Positions 10,761 through 41,742 of a DNA stretch of 64,000 nucleotides are shown piece after piece. Every line of letters starts with the position of its first letter. Within the stretch, counting starts at the first letter, position 1. This DNA is from Patescibacteria group bacterium (GTDB lineage: Bacteria > Patescibacteriota > Minisyncoccia > 2-02-FULL-40-12 > GWA2-44-9): the NCBI GenBank assembly GCA_038064515.1, contig JBBTSY010000004.1, positions 32,585 to 96,584 of the forward strand, read 5' to 3'. Both the position numbers and the translations under genes were made by a program. Below the pieces are notes generated by a model, which did not search any database, had not been told where the DNA came from, and saw only the letters and a list, made by a program, of their open reading frames with translations.

Positions 10761-11383
10761 GTGATGAAAAAGGCTTTCGTAGTAATCGTAATAGTTATTC
10801 TTACCGCGTTATTTTTCTGGTTTTTCGCCAAGAAGAGCGTAGCGCCAGAGCCACTAGAAACAGGCAAAAACTTTAGCCCGAGTCCGTCGGTAGGCGCGAT
10901 AACTAATGGTAATAAAGCTACCTGGGTTGCGCCCATTAGTAATGTCCGTGAGCGCATCACCAAAAAACCATTCGGTATTTTCGTGTCTCCTGCCGATTCA
11001 CCAGTCAGTCGGAAAAATTTACCGGTTATCATACCGGCGTTGATTTTGAAATATTTCCCGGTGAAGAAAATTCCTCTGTACCCGTGTATGCACTTTGTAG
11101 CGGCCCTTTACTTGAGAAAATTACGGCAAGCGGATATGGCGGCGTCGCTGTTCAAGAATACGAACTAAACAATCAACCGGTTACCGTAGTATACGGGCAC
11201 GTAAAACTTTCGAGCATTTCCATAAAATCCGGTCAGCAACTTAAAGCGGGCGACAAACTTGCCGTTTTGGGCGAGGGATTTAGCGCAGAAACCGGAGGAG
11301 AGCGAAAGCATTTACACATCGGCATACATAAAGGCGCTGGAAGGCGCTGGCGTGGATCTACGGGGATATGTGCAAAACCCTGA
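10761..11383 (+). pseudogene. Membrane-anchored M23 (LytM-type) peptidase, interrupted by a -1 frameshift in an A5 run at 11013-11017
   Basis: Frame 0 gives the TM anchor plus ...FGIFVSPADSPVSRK. The +2 frame continues ...FTGYHTGVDF...VVYGHV...GDKLAVLG...KHLHIGIHKG, a complete M23 core. Adding one A restores a single 207 aa ORF. Confidence 0.65.
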
Positions 11384-11429
11384 CACATTAACCGGCTGGA
11401 TAAACTTTGCCGACTATATACAATAGCGT

Positions 11430-11891
11430 ATGAAATGGAAGCATCCGCCAGTTATTAAAATTTACGAAGCTTTAGGCTCGGTTGCTGACGGCCGGGTAGA
11501 AGTTTCCGGCAATACCGCTAAAGTTTTTTCATCGAGCGGTAATAAATTCTACACTATTTCTTATGATCCGAAAAAACGAGCCATTATGGCCAATGATAAT
11601 GGCTCATATTGGAAGGGCTATCTCGGGTATCCATCTATTGCTTTTCTTCTTAAGATTGGCTTGCTTGAATTCCGTCCGGATTTAGCAAGTCTTCTGAAAG
11701 GAATCCGATGGAAAGACATAAATCAAAAATTTAAGAATGATTTTGGTAAGACGCTAGCATATATTGAGACATTTTTAGATACAGAATATAAGAAGAGTCT
11801 CGCGGATTATGTAAAAATTGTTGATAAGAAAATCAGCGCACTTAATCTTGGCCTACTTGGCACCAAAACTACTCCCCCAGGAGGTTACTAA
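11430..11891 (+). CDS. Hypothetical protein, 153 aa
   Basis: ORF with no motifs I recognise. Its stop overlaps the SD of murB. Confidence 0.4.
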   Translation: MKWKHPPVIKIYEALGSVADGRVEVSGNTAKVFSSSGNKFYTISYDPKKRAIMANDNGSYWKGYLGYPSIAFLLKIGLLEFRPDLASLLKGIRWKDINQKFKNDFGKTLAYIETFLDTEYKKSLADYVKIVDKKISALNLGLLGTKTTPPGGY

Positions 11892-17319: not shown

Positions 17320-17430
17320 GTTAATTATATTAGCACCATTTAGTCTTTTAGTACATTGATTTATCCCTCTATCTTTAAAAATAAATCTAAAAGTGATATG
17401 ATAAGAACACTAACTAATTAACTTATAATT

Positions 17431-17922
17431 ATGGAACAAAACATGCCAGAAGAACGTATGGGAATTTCGAAAGTAGTCATCTTTATTGTCATTCTCCTTA
17501 TTGCGGGAATAGTATATTGGGTAGTTAATTCCAGGGAGTCCTCTTCTCCGACGCTAGGTATAAGTCCGACAACGACTCCTACCGTTACGCCGACCGTATC
17601 ACCTACCAAAAGCGGCACACCGACAATAACTCCTACAAATTAAAGCGCCATAAAGACGTTTACCGTGACTGCGAGCAATTTTACTTTTTCACTTAAGGAA
17701 ATTAAAGTAAAGAAGGGCGACAAGGTGAAGATCATCCTCCAGAATACCGGAGGCACGCATGACTGGGTAATCGATGAATTCAATGCCCGCACAGCCCGGA
17801 TTGGAAACGGCCAGACCGCCACGGCAGAATTCACCGCCGATAAGACCGGCCGGTTCGAATACTATTGTTCTGTCGATACTCATCGCGCTATGGGCATGAA
17901 GGGAACGCTCATCGTTGAATAG
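17431..17922 (+). pseudogene. Membrane-anchored type-1 copper (cupredoxin) protein split by an in-frame TAA at 17641-17643
   Basis: The ORFs 17431-17643 (TM anchor plus PT-rich linker) and 17665-17922 (cupredoxin: HDW...YYCSVDTHRAMGM, His/Cys/His/Met ligands) are in the same frame. The first beta-strand KTFTVTASNFTF spans the gap, so a GTG restart would truncate the fold. Confidence 0.55.
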
Positions 17923-18004
17923 GACGTAACGCTCAAAAGACTTTTGCGGCTAGATTCTCAAAGAGGTTTCTTTTTATGTACTACGACTTGGGTGAGTGTG
18001 AGGG

Positions 18005-18033
18005 TTGACAATTTAATATTTCTGATATATAAT
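18005..18033 (+). promoter_or_regulatory. Sigma-70-type promoter: TTGACA, 17 nt spacer, TATAAT
   Basis: TTGACA at 18005-18010 and TATAAT at 18028-18033, about 60 nt upstream of the DEAD-box helicase gene. Confidence 0.55.
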
Positions 18034-18093
18034 TAACTTCCTCAATAGATTCTCTGGTAGCCAGTAGCGCATCCGGCGTCTCTTATAGGAATC

Positions 18094-24990: not shown

Positions 24991-26541
24991 ATGAAACATC
25001 TTCGAGAATTTACCATCGTCATTCTCATTATCCTGGTTGCTACTATTTTTCGGTTATATAAGCTTGACACATTCCCCCCGGGCTTATATCCCGATGAAGC
25101 AATGAACGGTAACAACGCCATCCAAGCCTACGAGACGGGTGAATATAAAATTTTCTATCCGGAAAATAACGGACGAGAAGGACTATTTATCGCGATTCAA
25201 TCGCTTTCTATCCGAGCATTCGGTAATACCGCTTATGCTCTACGGTTTGTATCCGCAATCACCGGCATACTTACCGTCTTGGGCCTCTATTTCCTCGCTA
25301 AAAAACTGTTTAACTGGCAGATCGGCGCAATCGCCAGTTTTTTAATGGCCATATCTTTTTGGCATGTTACGTTTTCACGTATCGGCTTTCGCGCTATTAT
25401 GGCTCCGCTTCTGGTCGTCTGGGGAGCTTATTTTTTCTGGAAAGGATTAAGTACTACCCGCTGGCAACATTTTGCAATCAGCGCCATATTCTGGGGCTTG
25501 GGTTTTTATACCTATATTTCTTTCCGCGTCATGCCTGGGGCGATCATTGCCGCTCTTCTGGCATATTGGTACGCTATTAAAAAAGATTTCAGCCACGATC
25601 GTTATATCCACGCGAGAAATCGCATCACCCAAGGATTGGCAGTCTTCATGCTGGTGGGCGGTATTGTGATTTTCCCTTTGGCATATCACTTTTACCTCCA
25701 GCCGGAAGATTTTCTCGGCCGCATAACTCAAGTTTCCATATTCTCGCAAGATAGTCCTTTAAAAATATTAGCCACGAATTTCGGCAAAACGCTGGGGATG
25801 TTTAATTTCGTCGGCGACCATAACTGGCGGCACAACTTCGCCGGGCGGCCCATCCTTTTCTTGCCCGTCGGCATTTTCTTCATTCTTGGATTTTTCAAAA
25901 GCATCCTCCGATTGGAACGGGGCCGGAAAACGCGCGGCCGTTTTTCGCCGCCGCATATTTTCTTATTTTCCTGGTTTTTTTTGGGACTGCTCCCCGTCGT
26001 TCTCTCGGCAGAAGGCATTCCTCACTCCCTCCGCGCCATTGTGGTCGTGCCGGTGATTTATATCTTCACCGCCGAGGGATTATGGTGGATTTTTGAGTGG
26101 TCACGCGACCATTATCGGGTGCGTAGCCGCCAGCAGAGCTATCTTCCCCTTGCGCATCATCATATCGCCCAAAGCACCCTTGCTATTTCCCTCGCCCTCG
26201 GCGCTTTTCTCTTGGCCGACGCGATTTACGAATTCAAGACTTACTTCTATGACTGGGGGCCAAACGAAACCGTGCGTGCTAATTTCAATCAAAATTACGT
26301 CGATATAGCTGACAGGCTCAACGCCCTGCCTCGTATAAAGGTAAAATATGTCTTAGTTAATGCCGGCGGCACACTGGTAAATGGCATCCCTATGCCGGCT
26401 CAAACTGTCATGTACCTCACTGATACCTGGACGTCGGAAAAGCAACAGGCAAAAAATATCTTTTATTTAAACATGGAGCAGTACGCCCAGCGCCGATACC
26501 TTCCCAACGCGATTATCATCCCGCTTGAGGAGAAAAAATAG
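24991..26541 (+). CDS. GT-C fold glycosyltransferase, family 39/83 (ArnT/PMT-like)
   Basis: N-terminal TM1 then the YPDEAMNGNNA loop-1 acidic motif. About 11 TM helices. 516 aa. Confidence 0.7.
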   Translation: MKHLREFTIVILIILVATIFRLYKLDTFPPGLYPDEAMNGNNAIQAYETGEYKIFYPENNGREGLFIAIQSLSIRAFGNTAYALRFVSAITGILTVLGLYFLAKKLFNWQIGAIASFLMAISFWHVTFSRIGFRAIMAPLLVVWGAYFFWKGLSTTRWQHFAISAIFWGLGFYTYISFRVMPGAIIAALLAYWYAIKKDFSHDRYIHARNRITQGLAVFMLVGGIVIFPLAYHFYLQPEDFLGRITQVSIFSQDSPLKILATNFGKTLGMFNFVGDHNWRHNFAGRPILFLPVGIFFILGFFKSILRLERGRKTRGRFSPPHIFLFSWFFLGLLPVVLSAEGIPHSLRAIVVVPVIYIFTAEGLWWIFEWSRDHYRVRSRQQSYLPLAHHHIAQSTLAISLALGAFLLADAIYEFKTYFYDWGPNETVRANFNQNYVDIADRLNALPRIKVKYVLVNAGGTLVNGIPMPAQTVMYLTDTWTSEKQQAKNIFYLNMEQYAQRRYLPNAIIIPLEEKK

Positions 26542-26565: not shown

Positions 26566-28356
26566 ATGCATAAATTACAAAAATTCTTTCCCGTCATCTT
26601 GATCGTGTTCGCAGTTTTTTTTGCGGTGATGAGTATGGTGAATGATTCGCAGATCGTCGATGAGATCCCTCATGTCGGCGCCGGCTACTCCTACCTCGTA
26701 AAGCGGGACATGCGGTTTAACCCCGAACATCCGCCGCTGGCCAAAGATCTCGCCGCATTGCCGCTCTTATTCATGAATCTGAAAGACACAGTGTTTTCTA
26801 CCGCGCATTGGGAACAGGGCCTTAATGATCAGTGGGAGTTCGGCCGTAAGCTGATCTACAACTCGGGCAATGACGGGGATGCGATCAAATTCTTCTCTCG
26901 CTTGCCGATGCTATTGTTCTATATTCTCGCCGCCATTATTATTTTTAAATGGGGCACCGAGCTCTACGGAGACACTGGGGGCATGCTCGCGCTGATCATC
27001 TTTCTTTTCTCTCCGACCGTCATGGCGCATAGCCGTTTCGTGACTACCGATATTCCCGCACTCTTCGGGACGTTGGCAAGCATCTATACGTTCCTGCATT
27101 ATCTCCAGAAGCCAACACGCAAGGGCATGATTATTGCTGGAGCGGTGTTCGGACTGGCGCTCCTCATGAAATTCTCCACGTTCCTTTTGATTCCCTTTTT
27201 GGCAGTTGTCGCTTTGGCTTATGGACTTTTTTATAATCACCACAAACATGGGCGCTATAAAAACAGCCTTAAAACCCTTGGCAATGCATTTATCATCTTT
27301 GTTATCGGCTTTCTAGGCGTCGTCTGGCCAGTTTACGGCTTTCATATCTGGCACTACCCGGTAGAGCGTCAGCTGGCCGACACTACGGCCCTCATGAGTT
27401 CTCAAGGCAATCGGCTCCTGGCAGATGTGGTGGTGTGGATGGCCGATAAGCCATTTATTCGAGCGCTGGGACAGTACTTTCTGGGCTTCTTGATGGTTCT
27501 ACAGCGATCAGCCGGCGGCAATACGATCTACTTCCTCGGCGAAGTAAAAAACTCTGGCGGACCATTATACTTTCCATTAGTTTATTTCATTAAAGAGCCT
27601 TTAGCCTGGTGGGGATTGGTATTTGTCGCTCTTTCCGGCGCCGCCTATCGCATTAGCAGGGTCAAGCAGTCCGTTAAAAAAATTGCAGTTTTGATTCACG
27701 ATCATTTCCCCGAAAGCGTTATGATAGCGTGGATAGCTTTCTATTGGTTCATCAGCATCCGCAGTACGCTCAATATCGGCGTCCGCCACCTTCTTCCCAC
27801 TTATCCATTTGTCATCCTGTTGGTTGCCGGCCAGATCGCCCTCATCGCCGACTGGTTGCGCAAGCATGAAAAAGGATTTATTAAAGCGTTCTCTCTGATA
27901 ATCGCCGCGCTTCTGGGTTGGTATGCGTATGAAAATATCCGAGTCTTCCCCTATTACCTAACTTATTTCAATCAAACGGTTGGCGGACCATCCGGCGGTC
28001 ATGAGTATGTTGCTGATTCAAATCTCGACTGGGGACAGGACCTTAAGCGGCTAAGCCAGTTTGTTGAGCGAAAAGGTATTCCTAAAATTGAATTGGATTA
28101 CTTCGGCTGGGCTGATCCGCGCTTCTATCTAGGCGATAGGTATATCTGGGTTACTGCCACAAGCTACAGCAATTCTCATGACTTCCTTAAGCGCAACCGG
28201 ACCGACGGCTGGATCGCCGTCTCGGCAACCTTTTTCCAGCAAGCAACCAGCTCTAACGTAGACCATCCGGGACCACTGCAGTATCTCTGGCTTAAAGGCT
28301 ACAAGCCAGAGGCGGTAATCGGCAACTCCATATTTGTGTGGCATATTACGAGATAG
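26566..28356 (+). CDS. GT-C fold glycosyltransferase, family 39 (PMT_2-like), second tandem copy
   Basis: DEIPHVGAGYSYL...NPEHPPLAK, a multi-TM N-terminal half and a soluble C-terminal domain. 596 aa. Confidence 0.7.
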   Translation: MHKLQKFFPVILIVFAVFFAVMSMVNDSQIVDEIPHVGAGYSYLVKRDMRFNPEHPPLAKDLAALPLLFMNLKDTVFSTAHWEQGLNDQWEFGRKLIYNSGNDGDAIKFFSRLPMLLFYILAAIIIFKWGTELYGDTGGMLALIIFLFSPTVMAHSRFVTTDIPALFGTLASIYTFLHYLQKPTRKGMIIAGAVFGLALLMKFSTFLLIPFLAVVALAYGLFYNHHKHGRYKNSLKTLGNAFIIFVIGFLGVVWPVYGFHIWHYPVERQLADTTALMSSQGNRLLADVVVWMADKPFIRALGQYFLGFLMVLQRSAGGNTIYFLGEVKNSGGPLYFPLVYFIKEPLAWWGLVFVALSGAAYRISRVKQSVKKIAVLIHDHFPESVMIAWIAFYWFISIRSTLNIGVRHLLPTYPFVILLVAGQIALIADWLRKHEKGFIKAFSLIIAALLGWYAYENIRVFPYYLTYFNQTVGGPSGGHEYVADSNLDWGQDLKRLSQFVERKGIPKIELDYFGWADPRFYLGDRYIWVTATSYSNSHDFLKRNRTDGWIAVSATFFQQATSSNVDHPGPLQYLWLKGYKPEAVIGNSIFVWHITR

Positions 28357-28775
28357 TGATCTGGCTCGCCGAGGCAGTACACACCAGAGAGAGTACGACA
28401 TCGCCGCCTACTGGCGGTGTGTCTCGTTCTCGCGCCAGTTGCACTGCGAAAGCCTCTCCTAGGGGTATACTGTTTCGGTTCACTTTTAGATAAATTAGCA
28501 AAAAAAAGGCCTGCGAGACAACACACGCAGACCAAGGACGGGCGACAGGACGGTATGAATTGGAGAAAAAACGAGCCACCACACGTCGCACCAGGTGGCC
28601 CAGCGATGGTTATTAAGGAGGCAGGGACCTCCCTAACTCCTCGGATGCCGCTCCAAGGATAGAGCAGATTAGCCGGTTCCCCCTGCCCGACTTGAGGGCT
28701 CTCTTGTATCCCTCGAGAGACTGCGGGTGCTTACGCAGTCCAGGCCTCCGTACCGCCCGTCAAACAGCGGCCGAT

Positions 28776-28907
28776 GAGGCCCGAAAAAAGCCAACAACTA
28801 CTTCAACTTCAGCTATCACTAGGAGAAATCTTGCTATATTCTTAACAGTCTATGAGTTCTTACTTGAATACTGGAAATAGCGTATTTACTGGCTTTTTTC
28901 GGGCCTC
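28776..28907. repeat. Perfect 17 bp inverted repeat (GAGGCCCGAAAAAAGCC / GGCTTTTTTCGGGCCTC) enclosing a 98 nt AT-rich loop
   Basis: Arms at 28776-28792 and 28891-28907. It lies in a 600 nt GC-rich non-coding region downstream of the ftsQ-like gene. Confidence 0.6.
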
Positions 28908-28973
28908 TTGCGAAGCCCAATATGAAAGGAACTACCAACCAGTACAGTATAGCATACCCAGCTATAATGTCAA

Positions 28974-29834
28974 CTACCTAGGCTGGGTTAATGATGGAGT
29001 TTGTTCCAGTGTCGGCTCGGGTGACAACGTCGGTTGTTCTCCTTTATCAAAATATACCCGCCCATCAATGCGAAGATCAATGTATTTTTTGGGATGAAAA
29101 GAGGGATCTTTACTTTTTTCTTCAAGAAATATCTTAAGGACCTCGAGTTGCTTATCTACGTTTGAATCGAGAGCAAAGACAAGATAATAACCCGCGCCGG
29201 TGTGAACTCGAAATTCATTGATCAGGTCGCCTGGAATCTCAATGTTCTTCAGAGCAATACCAAGCTCTGGCAAACGCTTCGTAACGATCTGAATCGATTT
29301 GAAAAAATCCTGATCAAGTTTAAAGCTGGTATCTCGATAGTCATTCACTGCGGTGAGCAGCGCACCCGACGAAGGAATGGCTTTCCCCCACGTTACACCC
29401 TTATCATCAAAATAAGCGCATTCGTTCTGCCGACACCAAATACCAATGGGCACACGCTCCACCCCGCTGATTTCCAGCGTATGAAAGTAATTTTTCGCAA
29501 CACGAACCTTTTCGAGAGAAGGAAATTTTTGAGCAAGGTCCTGCTCCGCGTACACCGCATTGAACAGCAGGATATCACGATATGGTCGGAAGTTCCACTG
29601 TTCGGTATTGATCATTGATTGAACATGCGCGAGCACGTCGCTTTGCTTGATTCGCTGGAAATCTTGGACATAAATGTCTCGAATCATAAATACCGAAGAA
29701 AATAGAAATAGGTATATCGCACCGCTGAAGGCAAAAAGACCGAGCGCGGTGCCGGCAACATATTTCAGAGATACGGGACGCTTCTTATTAAAGCTCCCTT
29801 GGAAACGAACATTGGTAATTGGGCCCGGTCTCAT
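28974..29834 (-). CDS. Cell-division protein FtsQ/DivIB-like (POTRA domain)
   Basis: Single N-terminal TM helix and a POTRA-like region. It overlaps serS by 4 nt, and sits in a division/cell-wall gene context. Confidence 0.55.
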   Translation of the reverse strand: MRPGPITNVRFQGSFNKKRPVSLKYVAGTALGLFAFSGAIYLFLFSSVFMIRDIYVQDFQRIKQSDVLAHVQSMINTEQWNFRPYRDILLFNAVYAEQDLAQKFPSLEKVRVAKNYFHTLEISGVERVPIGIWCRQNECAYFDDKGVTWGKAIPSSGALLTAVNDYRDTSFKLDQDFFKSIQIVTKRLPELGIALKNIEIPGDLINEFRVHTGAGYYLVFALDSNVDKQLEVLKIFLEEKSKDPSFHPKKYIDLRIDGRVYFDKGEQPTLSPEPTLEQTPSLTQPR

Positions 29835-40863: not shown

Positions 40864-41742
40864 TTATTGATTAAGGAGAAAGGTCTCCAAAGCGAGACGA
40901 TGATTGTATTGCGGTTGAGAAATAATATGTTTAAGTCTCAAAAGTCCCTTGATGGCACGATGCGCTTTTTCGTCATCGCGCAGATGCGCATGAGCCCATC
41001 GTAACCAGTAGTCTACGGCGTGAGCATATTCCTCTTTCTCGTAGAGTTTCTTGGCATATTGAAGCCGCTCCGCCACACCCTGGCTTGATACTTTTCGAAA
41101 ATCACGAATTGCCGTTCGAACATCATCAATTGATCCCGATTCGATCGTACGGATAGCCCAACCCAGCCTTCCATTTGCAATTTCAGTAACCAGCGCGCTC
41201 GTTTCATTATCTGCTTTCTTTGAGGCGAGCATTTTTTTAATAACCTCATCAGTATGCGGTAAAAATGGAACTTCCTGACATCGAGAAGTAATCGTAGGAA
41301 GCAGCTGTTTGGGCTGTGAGCTAATTAGAAGTAACGTGGAATAAGGCGGGGGTTCCTCTAAAACTTTCAACAGCGCATTAGATGCTTCAATCGTCAGGCG
41401 ATCGGCATCGTCAATAATCACGAACTTATAGGGGCCCGCCAGCGGTTTTCGAGATATAAAAAGATTCACTTCTCGAATATCGTCGATGTAAATTTTCGAC
41501 TCACCCTCATTCACTCGCGGCCCGATTACCAGCCGGTCTGCATCAAGTACCGATGCGGAATCAGGATTGGCTAAACGACAGAGTTCTTGGGCGAATTTTC
41601 TCTTGCCGATCATTTCCGGACCGGAGAAAAGATATGCGTGGAGAAACCGATCTTTTTTAAGAAGATTTTCGAAGTAGCTCTTTTGAAATTCGAATCCGAT
41701 CGTGTGCCAATCCATAGAACCCATCTCAATAATACTTTTCAT
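40864..41742 (-). CDS. holB: DNA polymerase III delta-prime subunit
   Basis: HAYLFSGPEMIGK and the SRCQ sensor. The first 9 codons (MKSIIEMGS) lie inside the MITE-like element. An alternative start is MDWH at 41713-41715. Confidence 0.7.
   Translation of the reverse strand: MKSIIEMGSMDWHTIGFEFQKSYFENLLKKDRFLHAYLFSGPEMIGKRKFAQELCRLANPDSASVLDADRLVIGPRVNEGESKIYIDDIREVNLFISRKPLAGPYKFVIIDDADRLTIEASNALLKVLEEPPPYSTLLLISSQPKQLLPTITSRCQEVPFLPHTDEVIKKMLASKKADNETSALVTEIANGRLGWAIRTIESGSIDDVRTAIRDFRKVSSQGVAERLQYAKKLYEKEEYAHAVDYWLRWAHAHLRDDEKAHRAIKGLLRLKHIISQPQYNHRLALETFLLNQ

Follow-up and report, generated by a model that had tools for sequence, protein, structure and literature searches.

In a 64,000-nucleotide (nt) stretch of contig JBBTSY010000004.1 from a Patescibacteria group bacterium (GCA_038064515.1; the whole stretch is referred to here as the window), the interval 28357–28973 is bounded by the stop codons of two genes, one on the plus strand for a PMT-family glycosyltransferase (26566–28356) and an FtsQ-like one on the minus strand (28974–29834). 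We conclude that this interval probably holds a free-standing minus-strand gene for a structured noncoding RNA (ncRNA) of an undescribed family. We have little doubt that a real structured ncRNA gene is present on the minus strand, and we consider it quite likely that the RNA is not a member of any known family. The predicted RNA is roughly 440 nt long here and would range from about 270 to more than 800 nt in relatives. It comprises an AU-rich 5′ domain of about 180 nt (28767–28945, minus strand), which scores 130.2 bits with our covariance model (R1), and a GC-rich 3′ domain (28600–28775, minus strand), recognized by folding and by comparison with one relative, L042. The locus has what is generally looked for in a bacterial ncRNA gene, namely its own promoter, a terminator, a covarying structure and no conserved open reading frame (ORF). 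We found no description in the literature of such an RNA in candidate phyla radiation (CPR) bacteria.

A prior, sequence-only reading of this interval had reported a noncoding region with a GC-rich hairpin and a long-range inverted repeat. The region is indeed noncoding, given that it is flanked by two stop codons, that none of its five ORFs of 62–81 aa has a Pfam match, and that indels among relatives break the frame (their lengths are not multiples of three). A protein-coding gene was rejected because the ORFs lack Pfam matches and are not conserved. The inverted repeat, given as 17 bp, is real and slightly longer, with 18 perfect bp (28776–28793/28890–28907), and extends to 26 nt at 88% (28776–28801/28882–28907). 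Only 0.1 perfect inverted repeats of at least 14 nt within 200 nt are expected in first-order Markov shuffles of the window, so the repeat is far beyond chance. The ggcaggg/ccctgcc hairpin is also present (minus-strand GGGCAGGG at 28688–28681 and CCCUGCCUC at 28626–28618). The reported GC excess was borne out (58.7% in 28500–28775 versus 45.6% for the whole window and 40.6% in 28776–28945), but its assignment to the 5′ two-thirds was not, since the element is on the minus strand and the GC-rich sequence is its 3′ part. The strand, the promoter, and the joining of the repeat and the GC-rich sequence as two domains of one transcript go beyond that reading.

Homologous loci were first fetched through the neighboring FtsQ protein only, independent of the RNA sequence (28 genome loci plus the three closest relatives). 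The FtsQ-like protein occurs on Hainich groundwater metagenome contigs and in a Patescibacteria metagenome-assembled genome (GCA_964360865.1). Among the fetched loci, the first ~200 nt of the minus-strand interval are kept in Yanofskybacteria, Zambryskibacteria and other relatives, in the same orientation downstream of ftsQ. A degenerate pattern made from the conserved blocks occurs exactly once in the window and in none of 100 shuffles, and it recovered 33 more metagenome loci; the pattern was not found in viral contigs. Removal of duplicates left 34 distinct cores. One more, L010, came from a covariance-model search; it keeps the stem but differs at pattern positions, and it brings the set to 35 sequences, from Paceibacteria. 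Where flanks are available, the gene order is serS-ftsQ-(0–2 kb, with murB in some)-RNA, converging on PMT genes, and the pair of PMT genes is kept beside the RNA in most relatives. In these 35 sequences, from ultra-small bacteria of groundwater, the 5′ domain is kept at the same locus, and the scenario in which relatives have an ordinary gene at this position, which would point to a pseudogene here, does not occur.

Base pairing was tested with a manual model of 37 pairs, consisting of the long stem formed by the inverted repeat, the outer and inner helices of a hairpin (H2) and a further hairpin (H3). In a structure-blind MAFFT alignment of 34 sequences, 90.8% of cells pair, versus 38–57% when the 3′ partners are slid by 1–3 columns, and changes on both sides occur in 15 pairs, versus 8.5 ± 1.8 in shuffles (a value reached in 1 of 500). 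The covariance-model alignment of 35 sequences gives 93.9% paired cells and compensatory changes in 19 of the 37 pairs, although this alignment is fitted to the structure and leans toward it. A similar caution applies to sequence invariance at the 27 positions fixed in the search pattern, where it arises by construction; the compensatory changes fall at pattern positions left free. RNAalifold also recovers the long stem.

These comparisons bear on whether the conserved feature is RNA at all. A DNA-level element (a cruciform, a recombination or replication site, or a bidirectional terminator) or decayed sequence could be imagined for a long AT-rich inverted repeat between convergent genes, the more so as the plus strand also folds below shuffled controls (−149.9 kcal/mol, z = −3.56), although more weakly than the minus strand (minimum free energy of −174.3 kcal/mol, z = −4.26). 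However, model R1 gives 97–174 bits on the forward strand of the homologues and 30–54 bits on the reverse, and the pairing cells hold 126 G·U versus 24 A·C combinations. The excess of G·U fixes the strand and indicates that pairing is selected on a minus-strand RNA, against a DNA-level palindrome. Furthermore, the hairpins inside the "loop" of the repeat covary, the promoter and terminators are conserved, and there is no ORF or Pfam remnant. The 5′ domain is 53–86% identical to the window copy at the nucleotide level, versus 34–61% for FtsQ across relatives. We regard this explanation as largely refuted and extremely improbable.

The 5′ domain opens with a nearly invariant leader (28919–28939, minus strand; GUAGUUCCUUUCAUAUU in the window), identified in the alignments, which reads AAGUUCUUUACAUA in most relatives and GUAGUUCCUUUCAUA in the window. 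It is followed by a GGGC-containing flank, GGGCUUCGCAAGA (28906–28918), found by duplex tabulation, which in relatives is one strand of a likely helix, P0. There, GGGCCC or GAGCC just 3′ of the long hairpin is able to pair with the GGGCYC flank on the 5′ side of the stem, and the position of this partner is consistent, just before a conserved AAnAAGAyGG linker. P0 duplex energies are no better than those of shuffles. The long stem itself, defined by the inverted repeat and by covariation, is formed by the 5′ arm GAGGCCCGAAAAAAGCCAGUAAAUAC (28882–28907) and the 3′ arm GUAGUUGUUGGCUUUUUUCGGGCCUC (28776–28801). The repeat of the sequence-only reading is a stem of 20–23 bp that closes a junction of two hairpins; its cells are 96% paired, and both sides change in 7 of 23 pairs.

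Within the junction, covariation defines H2 (28839–28876), in which UUC-CAGU and ACUG-UUAA-GAA flank a 20-nt loop containing invariant CAAGUAAGA. Compensatory changes were found in all four inner pairs of H2 and in two of the four outer pairs, and its loop (AUUCAAGUAAGA...) is nearly invariant. The remainder of the junction is a variable hairpin, H3, with the strand that joins it to the 3′ arm (28802–28838). All six modeled pairs of H3 covary, and 78–85% of their cells are paired. About half of the homologues have another hairpin after the stem. Two further ideas about this domain were rejected. A pseudoknot between the leader and the H2 loop (UCUUUAC with GUAAGA) would involve strands that are almost invariant, and the few variants break the pairs rather than compensate for them. 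GGA motifs of the CsrA type were dismissed because the AAGGAU of H2 is GAA in the window.

The 5′ domain also has two features that we record separately. In nine homologues, the leader and the long stem are separated by an optional hairpin of about 40 nt whose stems covary and whose apical loop (GUGCUUUAGCC/GUGCGUAAGCC) is conserved; carriers include L007, L037, L039, L047, L049, L052, L055 and L062 (alignment columns 41–94). Within the 5′ arm of the stem in the window, GAAAAAAG (28893–28899, minus strand) reads A-AAA-AAG, a classical −1 frameshift slippery heptamer, which we judge to be coincidental because it lies outside any conserved reading frame.

Transcription signals frame the element on the same strand. 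A sigma-70 promoter scan of the window identified a −35 hexamer, TTGACA, directly after the ftsQ-like stop codon (28968–28973), and an extended −10 element, TGCTATACT (28946–28954), which together match 11 of 12 positions with a 16-nt spacer and an extended −10 TG. From this geometry, transcription is expected to start near 28939. TTGAC and a TGnTAtAcT-like −10 element occur at a fixed distance from the leader in 34 of 34 cores, with a spacer of 16–17 nt (18 in one). At the other end there are two intrinsic terminators. The first is a GCCACC...GGUGGC hairpin (28566–28599; −14.7 kcal/mol) that abuts a run of six U residues. The second pairs GGUCUGCG with CGCAGGCC before eight U residues (28500–28533; −13.6 kcal/mol); a simple terminator scan missed it because its loop is 10 nt. 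Depending on the terminator, the predicted RNA would be about 375–440 nt long, and the second terminator is the probable 3′ end, for a length of about 440 nt. Most homologues are likewise closed by terminators, which in most loci lie 247–706 nt past the core.

Another possibility is that the element acts in cis, as a 3′ element of a lysS-serS-ftsQ operon in which the stem would be an RNase III processing or stabilizing site on read-through transcripts. On its strand, the element always comes directly after ftsQ or murB; the scan of the window showed no terminator separating it from ftsQ, and a perfect duplex of at least 20 bp is a classical RNase III substrate. Yet a near-consensus promoter stands immediately upstream in all 34 copies, the loops and leader are conserved in sequence far beyond what a processing stem needs, and in several relatives the element stands 1–2 kb away from ftsQ, with murB in between. 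We give this alternative little credence. The murB genes in question (FAD_binding_4 plus MurB_C) were identified in L012 (5144–6133) and L008 (4786–5793), and also in L020; where murB intervenes, the RNA keeps its own promoter.

The GC-rich 3′ domain of the window can be aligned only with that of L042. Folding and this comparison identified hairpin A (28740–28719, minus strand), with the loop UAAGCACC, and hairpin B (28714–28694), with the loop AUACAAGAGAG. Between the two sequences, the stems of A and B differ and remain complementary, and the loops, (U)AAGCAC(C) and AUAnAAGAGnG, are kept. The two also share the block GCUCUAUCCUYGGA...GCAUCCRGGAGU. Downstream, folding predicts a branched hairpin (28688–28618) closed by GGGCAGGG and CCCUGCCUC, with an inner hairpin at 28659–28638. 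Elsewhere, GC contents of 55–59% are typical of most relatives' tails. The tails of the Yanofsky clade are homologous but modular, with the helices D1 (GGCCCGGCGCAGUC/GACUGCGCCGCGGCC), D1b and D2 (AUCGGCAGGA/UCCUGCCGAU); RNAalifold found compensatory changes in 14 of 42 pairs in eight of these tails. In 14 of 33 tails, the terminator is immediately preceded by a hairpin, GGC-A-CAGGA...UCCUG-UAA-GCC, which is a conserved module of this clade. The covarying, conserved-loop character of the tail indicates that the GC-rich sequence forms a structured 3′ domain that evolves quickly and is not a decayed gene. A tail built as a tandem, sponge-like array of AAGAYGG modules was considered and rejected, because the motif occurs only one to three times, mostly at the start of the tail.

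The variability of this domain is the basis for the strongest competing explanation, in which the interval holds two separate things: a ~180-nt RNA (leader and long hairpin) as the sole functional unit, and a GC-rich part that is either an unrelated spacer or a second RNA. Tail lengths range from about 0 nt (L041) through about 100 nt (L054 and L037) to more than 700 nt, the tails cannot be aligned between clades, and the 5′ domain alone is universal. From the core to the PMT stop codon there are between 63 nt (L041) and about 1.4 kb, with an extra gene probably included in the longest, lower-GC cases. Against a division into two, neither a promoter-like site nor a terminator was seen between the 5′ and 3′ parts in the scan of the window, and terminators stand at the far ends of the tails. 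In relatives, P0 pairs across the long hairpin and the AAnAAGAyGG linker leads into helix D1. Finally, the covarying tail helices and the conserved terminal hairpin argue for one RNA that extends from promoter to terminator. We consider two separate entities unlikely.

The sequence-only reading had proposed a housekeeping RNA in divergent form or a novel structured RNA, with a comparison against Rfam as one check. We made that comparison with Rfam 15 (4227 families). At gathering thresholds, the only match in the whole window is a tRNA-Gln elsewhere in it. At E ≤ 10, scans of the region and of relatives L012, L053 and L009, which list matches down to about 9 bits, returned only chance plant and animal microRNA hairpins and a terminator-containing small RNA; a weak Atu_C7 match covers only the second terminator. 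Nothing relevant was found in seven relatives at E ≤ 1. With ARAGORN, no transfer-messenger RNA (tmRNA) was detected in the window, nor in any of 19 homologous loci. Hallmark motifs (CR-I and CR-V of RNase P, the T-loop and 5′ end of tmRNA, and those of signal recognition particle [SRP] RNA) are no more frequent in 32 full-length homologues than in shuffles. The proposal of a divergent tmRNA, RNase P RNA or SRP RNA thus has no backing from Rfam, ARAGORN or motifs. The proposal of a novel structured RNA gains from the promoter, the terminators, the synteny in 35 sequences and the covarying base pairs.

Considered family by family, the tmRNA option fails on the tRNA-like domain (5′ GGGG, a GGUUCGAAUCC-like T-arm and 3′ CCA), for which both ARAGORN and the motif counts were negative. 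A tag-encoding ORF was rejected because indels of 2, 11 and 13 nt upstream of an invariant UAA break the frame; the residues that would be C-terminal also vary (AFK, VFK, VCK). The likeness is limited to an A-rich stretch next to GCC that resembles the PK1/tag region, and to the invariant UAA in a hairpin loop, and there is no tRNA-like domain, T-loop or CCA end. For RNase P RNA, neither RF00010 nor RF00011 matched at gathering thresholds or at E ≤ 10 in the region, L012, L053 or L009. The CR-I (AGGAAAGUCC) and CR-V (ACAGAAnnCGGCUUA) strands that form P4 around the catalytic and specificity domains occur at shuffle frequency. The only CR-I-like and CR-V-like strands that pair together do so around about 95 nt, which is too little for an RNase P core and the wrong topology, and terminal 5′–3′ (P1) pairing was not found. 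Strings resembling CR-I, CR-V or the S-domain by eye (also GUGAAAGUCCGCC and GAUAAACCCCGCAAG in L009) are not positionally conserved, not enriched over shuffles and not matched by a covariance model. What is shared with RNase P RNA is the size range, a conserved core with variable peripheral helices, a GC content that is high for the genome and an A-rich strand beside a GCC helix that superficially recalls J3/4-P4; unlike RNase P RNA, this RNA is absent from the syntenic site of some relatives.

The remaining small housekeeping RNAs fare no better. SRP RNA (4.5S/scRNA; domain IV GNRA hairpin, AGCAG/CAGG loops; RF00169 and RF01854) has no Rfam match, and its motifs are at shuffle frequency. 6S RNA, which binds the sigma-70 holoenzyme and templates pRNA, folds as a rod of about 185 nt in which the 5′ and 3′ ends pair and a terminal stem and a large bubble at the center are formed, and it is a housekeeping RNA that is often unannotated in CPR genomes. 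The two would have in common a long closing stem and status as abundant, promoter-driven ncRNAs, but RF00013 does not match, and in the RNA described here two hairpins are enclosed by the stem, with the leader left free and a long domain on the 3′ side. A stem with two hairpins also recalls the topology of 5S rRNA; RF00001 gives no match at E ≤ 10, however, and a stem of 23 bp closes the junction, versus ~10 bp in 5S rRNA. The stems of the rRNA type that RNase III cleaves offer another parallel, in that a perfect duplex of at least 20 bp flanks a structured RNA module; in our case, however, the enclosed module is only about 95–120 nt and does not resemble 5S rRNA according to Rfam, and the sequence of the stem is conserved.

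Taking RNase P, tmRNA, SRP and 6S RNA together, a highly divergent housekeeping RNA is in our view highly improbable. A strong promoter, GC-rich structure and a size of about 400–900 nt would suit such an RNA, and there is a faint resemblance by eye of GAAAAAAGCCAG to CR-I and of GGGGGAACCGGCUAAUC to CR-V. CPR RNase P RNAs have diverged and can fall below Rfam thresholds, with RF00010 scores of only about 5 bits for some (Lui et al. 2021, PMC8172020). Set against this are the negative scans and motif counts, the ~95 nt that the CR-I-like and CR-V-like strands enclose, the absence of the RNA from the syntenic site in L033, a 5′ end that is not G-rich, and the lack of a 3′ CCA and a T-arm.

Large ncRNAs of known families were also considered. 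OLE, GOLLD, ROOL, HEARO and raiA have no Rfam 15 match in any scan. OLE is linked to membrane and envelope genes, and the same linkage is seen for the RNA described here. Like OLE, GOLLD and ROOL, "ornate" RNAs whose functions are unknown or emerging (PMC12286853), this RNA is large (hundreds of nt), multi-helix and clade-restricted, has its own transcription signals and was discovered through its conservation and covariation, not through a function. It differs from them in its CPR host, in not being near tRNAs or prophage genes, in not being found in viral contigs, and in the combination of a conserved AU-rich 5′ core with a hypervariable GC-rich tail.

Several observations weigh against a single undescribed RNA of this kind. 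The start site, the ends and the abundance of the transcript are all deduced from signals in the DNA, and any function assigned to the RNA is a guess. Two helices, P0 and H3, are poorly defined in the window's own copy, H3 being the least certain. The 3′ domain cannot be aligned between the window clade and the Yanofsky clade, is nearly absent in L041 (63 nt) and is short in L054 and L037, so it may be dispensable or a separate entity. Distribution is a further point. In L033 (4001–6369), the syntenic site lacks the RNA, ftsQ and the PMT gene abutting without a gap. In L011, L014, L015 and L016, neither the RNA nor the PMT genes lie within 4 kb of ftsQ. Model R1, run with filters off, detected no RNA in nine other FtsQ loci (the match in L018 is a plain hairpin). 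The absence from L033 and other loci implies that the RNA is not universally essential, or that it has moved. Lastly, a very degenerate RNase P RNA could score below the ~9 bits to which our scans list matches (PMC8172020).

Some features of the surroundings are worth recording. The FtsQ-like gene encodes a 286-aa FtsQ-type POTRA protein, and serS and lysS lie further along the minus strand. On the other side, two tandem plus-strand genes for PMT/PMT_2-family (ArnT-like) glycosyltransferases (24991–26541 and 26566–28356) converge on the RNA gene. A 143-nt segment (28357–28499) separates the RNA terminator from the PMT stop codon; it is GC-rich, has hairpins of its own and includes a weak plus-strand terminator-like site (28452–28466); several relatives have almost no spacer at the matching position. 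This segment is probably the 3′ untranslated region and weak terminator of the plus-strand PMT gene, outside the predicted RNA. Among the relatives, SerRS is 66–70% identical to that of the window in L011, L014–L016 and L010, versus 37–41% in other RNA-carrying loci of Yanofsky type, which suggests two SerRS lineages or gene exchange. L010 carries the RNA, unlike L011 and L014–L016.

Elsewhere in the window, two gaps between ORFs of at least 100 aa (17320–18093 and 11169–11817) exceed the one described here, which is third in size, so the earlier description of it as the longest noncoding stretch is roughly right only: the larger two hold ORFs of 70–153 aa that are probably genes. The largest, 17320–18093 (774 nt), holds only ORFs of 64–85 aa, on both strands, and has no Rfam match in the window scan. 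It could hold small genes or another noncoding element. There is also a 19-nt inverted repeat at 41717–41735/41904–41922, with 95% complementarity and 168 nt between its arms.

How might the RNA function? The near-consensus promoter implies high expression, and the conserved sequence of the leader, stem and H2 loop, together with an expandable periphery and a strong promoter, resembles the RNAs of ribonucleoproteins that have a conserved partner. By analogy, we tentatively suggest a trans-acting, protein-binding scaffold RNA. Such an RNA would be stable and abundant and would act in trans as a scaffold for a protein or other macromolecule, following the logic of OLE, 6S, SRP and RNase P RNAs. 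Its recognition core could be the sequence-invariant 5′ domain, and the GC-rich 3′ domain may serve as an accessory expansion contributing stability or structure. The perfect 20–23-bp stem is a plausible site for RNase III processing or for a protein with a double-stranded RNA-binding domain, and processing there could separate the domains. Fixed linkage to ftsQ/murB and to two PMT-type glycosyltransferases hints at a role in the envelope or division; this is the weakest step and derives from synteny. A base-pairing regulator or a ribozyme is a possible alternative function.

Overall, we lean toward the view that the RNA is the founding member of an undescribed class of two-domain large RNAs, specific to a Paceibacteria clade (Yanofskybacteria, Zambryskibacteria and relatives) and highly expressed, with a partner-binding AU-rich core, possibly tied to division or the envelope, and an evolvable GC-rich expansion. 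To our knowledge, large structured ncRNAs are rare in bacteria, and almost every one that has been solved has proved to be fundamental or unexpected (a ribozyme, a ribonucleoprotein machine or an RNA cage). CPR bacteria (Patescibacteria) are uncultured and have tiny genomes (about 1 Mb) in which noncoding DNA is very scarce, and we know of essentially nothing established about their RNA biology. In genomes this small, a promoter-driven RNA of 0.4–0.9 kb that is kept at one locus and conserved above its protein neighbors implies a function that justifies its cost. The RNA is new in the sense that it is without relation to any described RNA family; no new biochemical principle is claimed. The finding supplies a concrete, testable family, with a covariance model, 35 sequences and defined domains. 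Apart from rRNA, RNase P RNA and tmRNA, few large ncRNAs are known in these minimal-genome, host-dependent bacteria, and, if the interpretation is correct, this RNA would be one of them.

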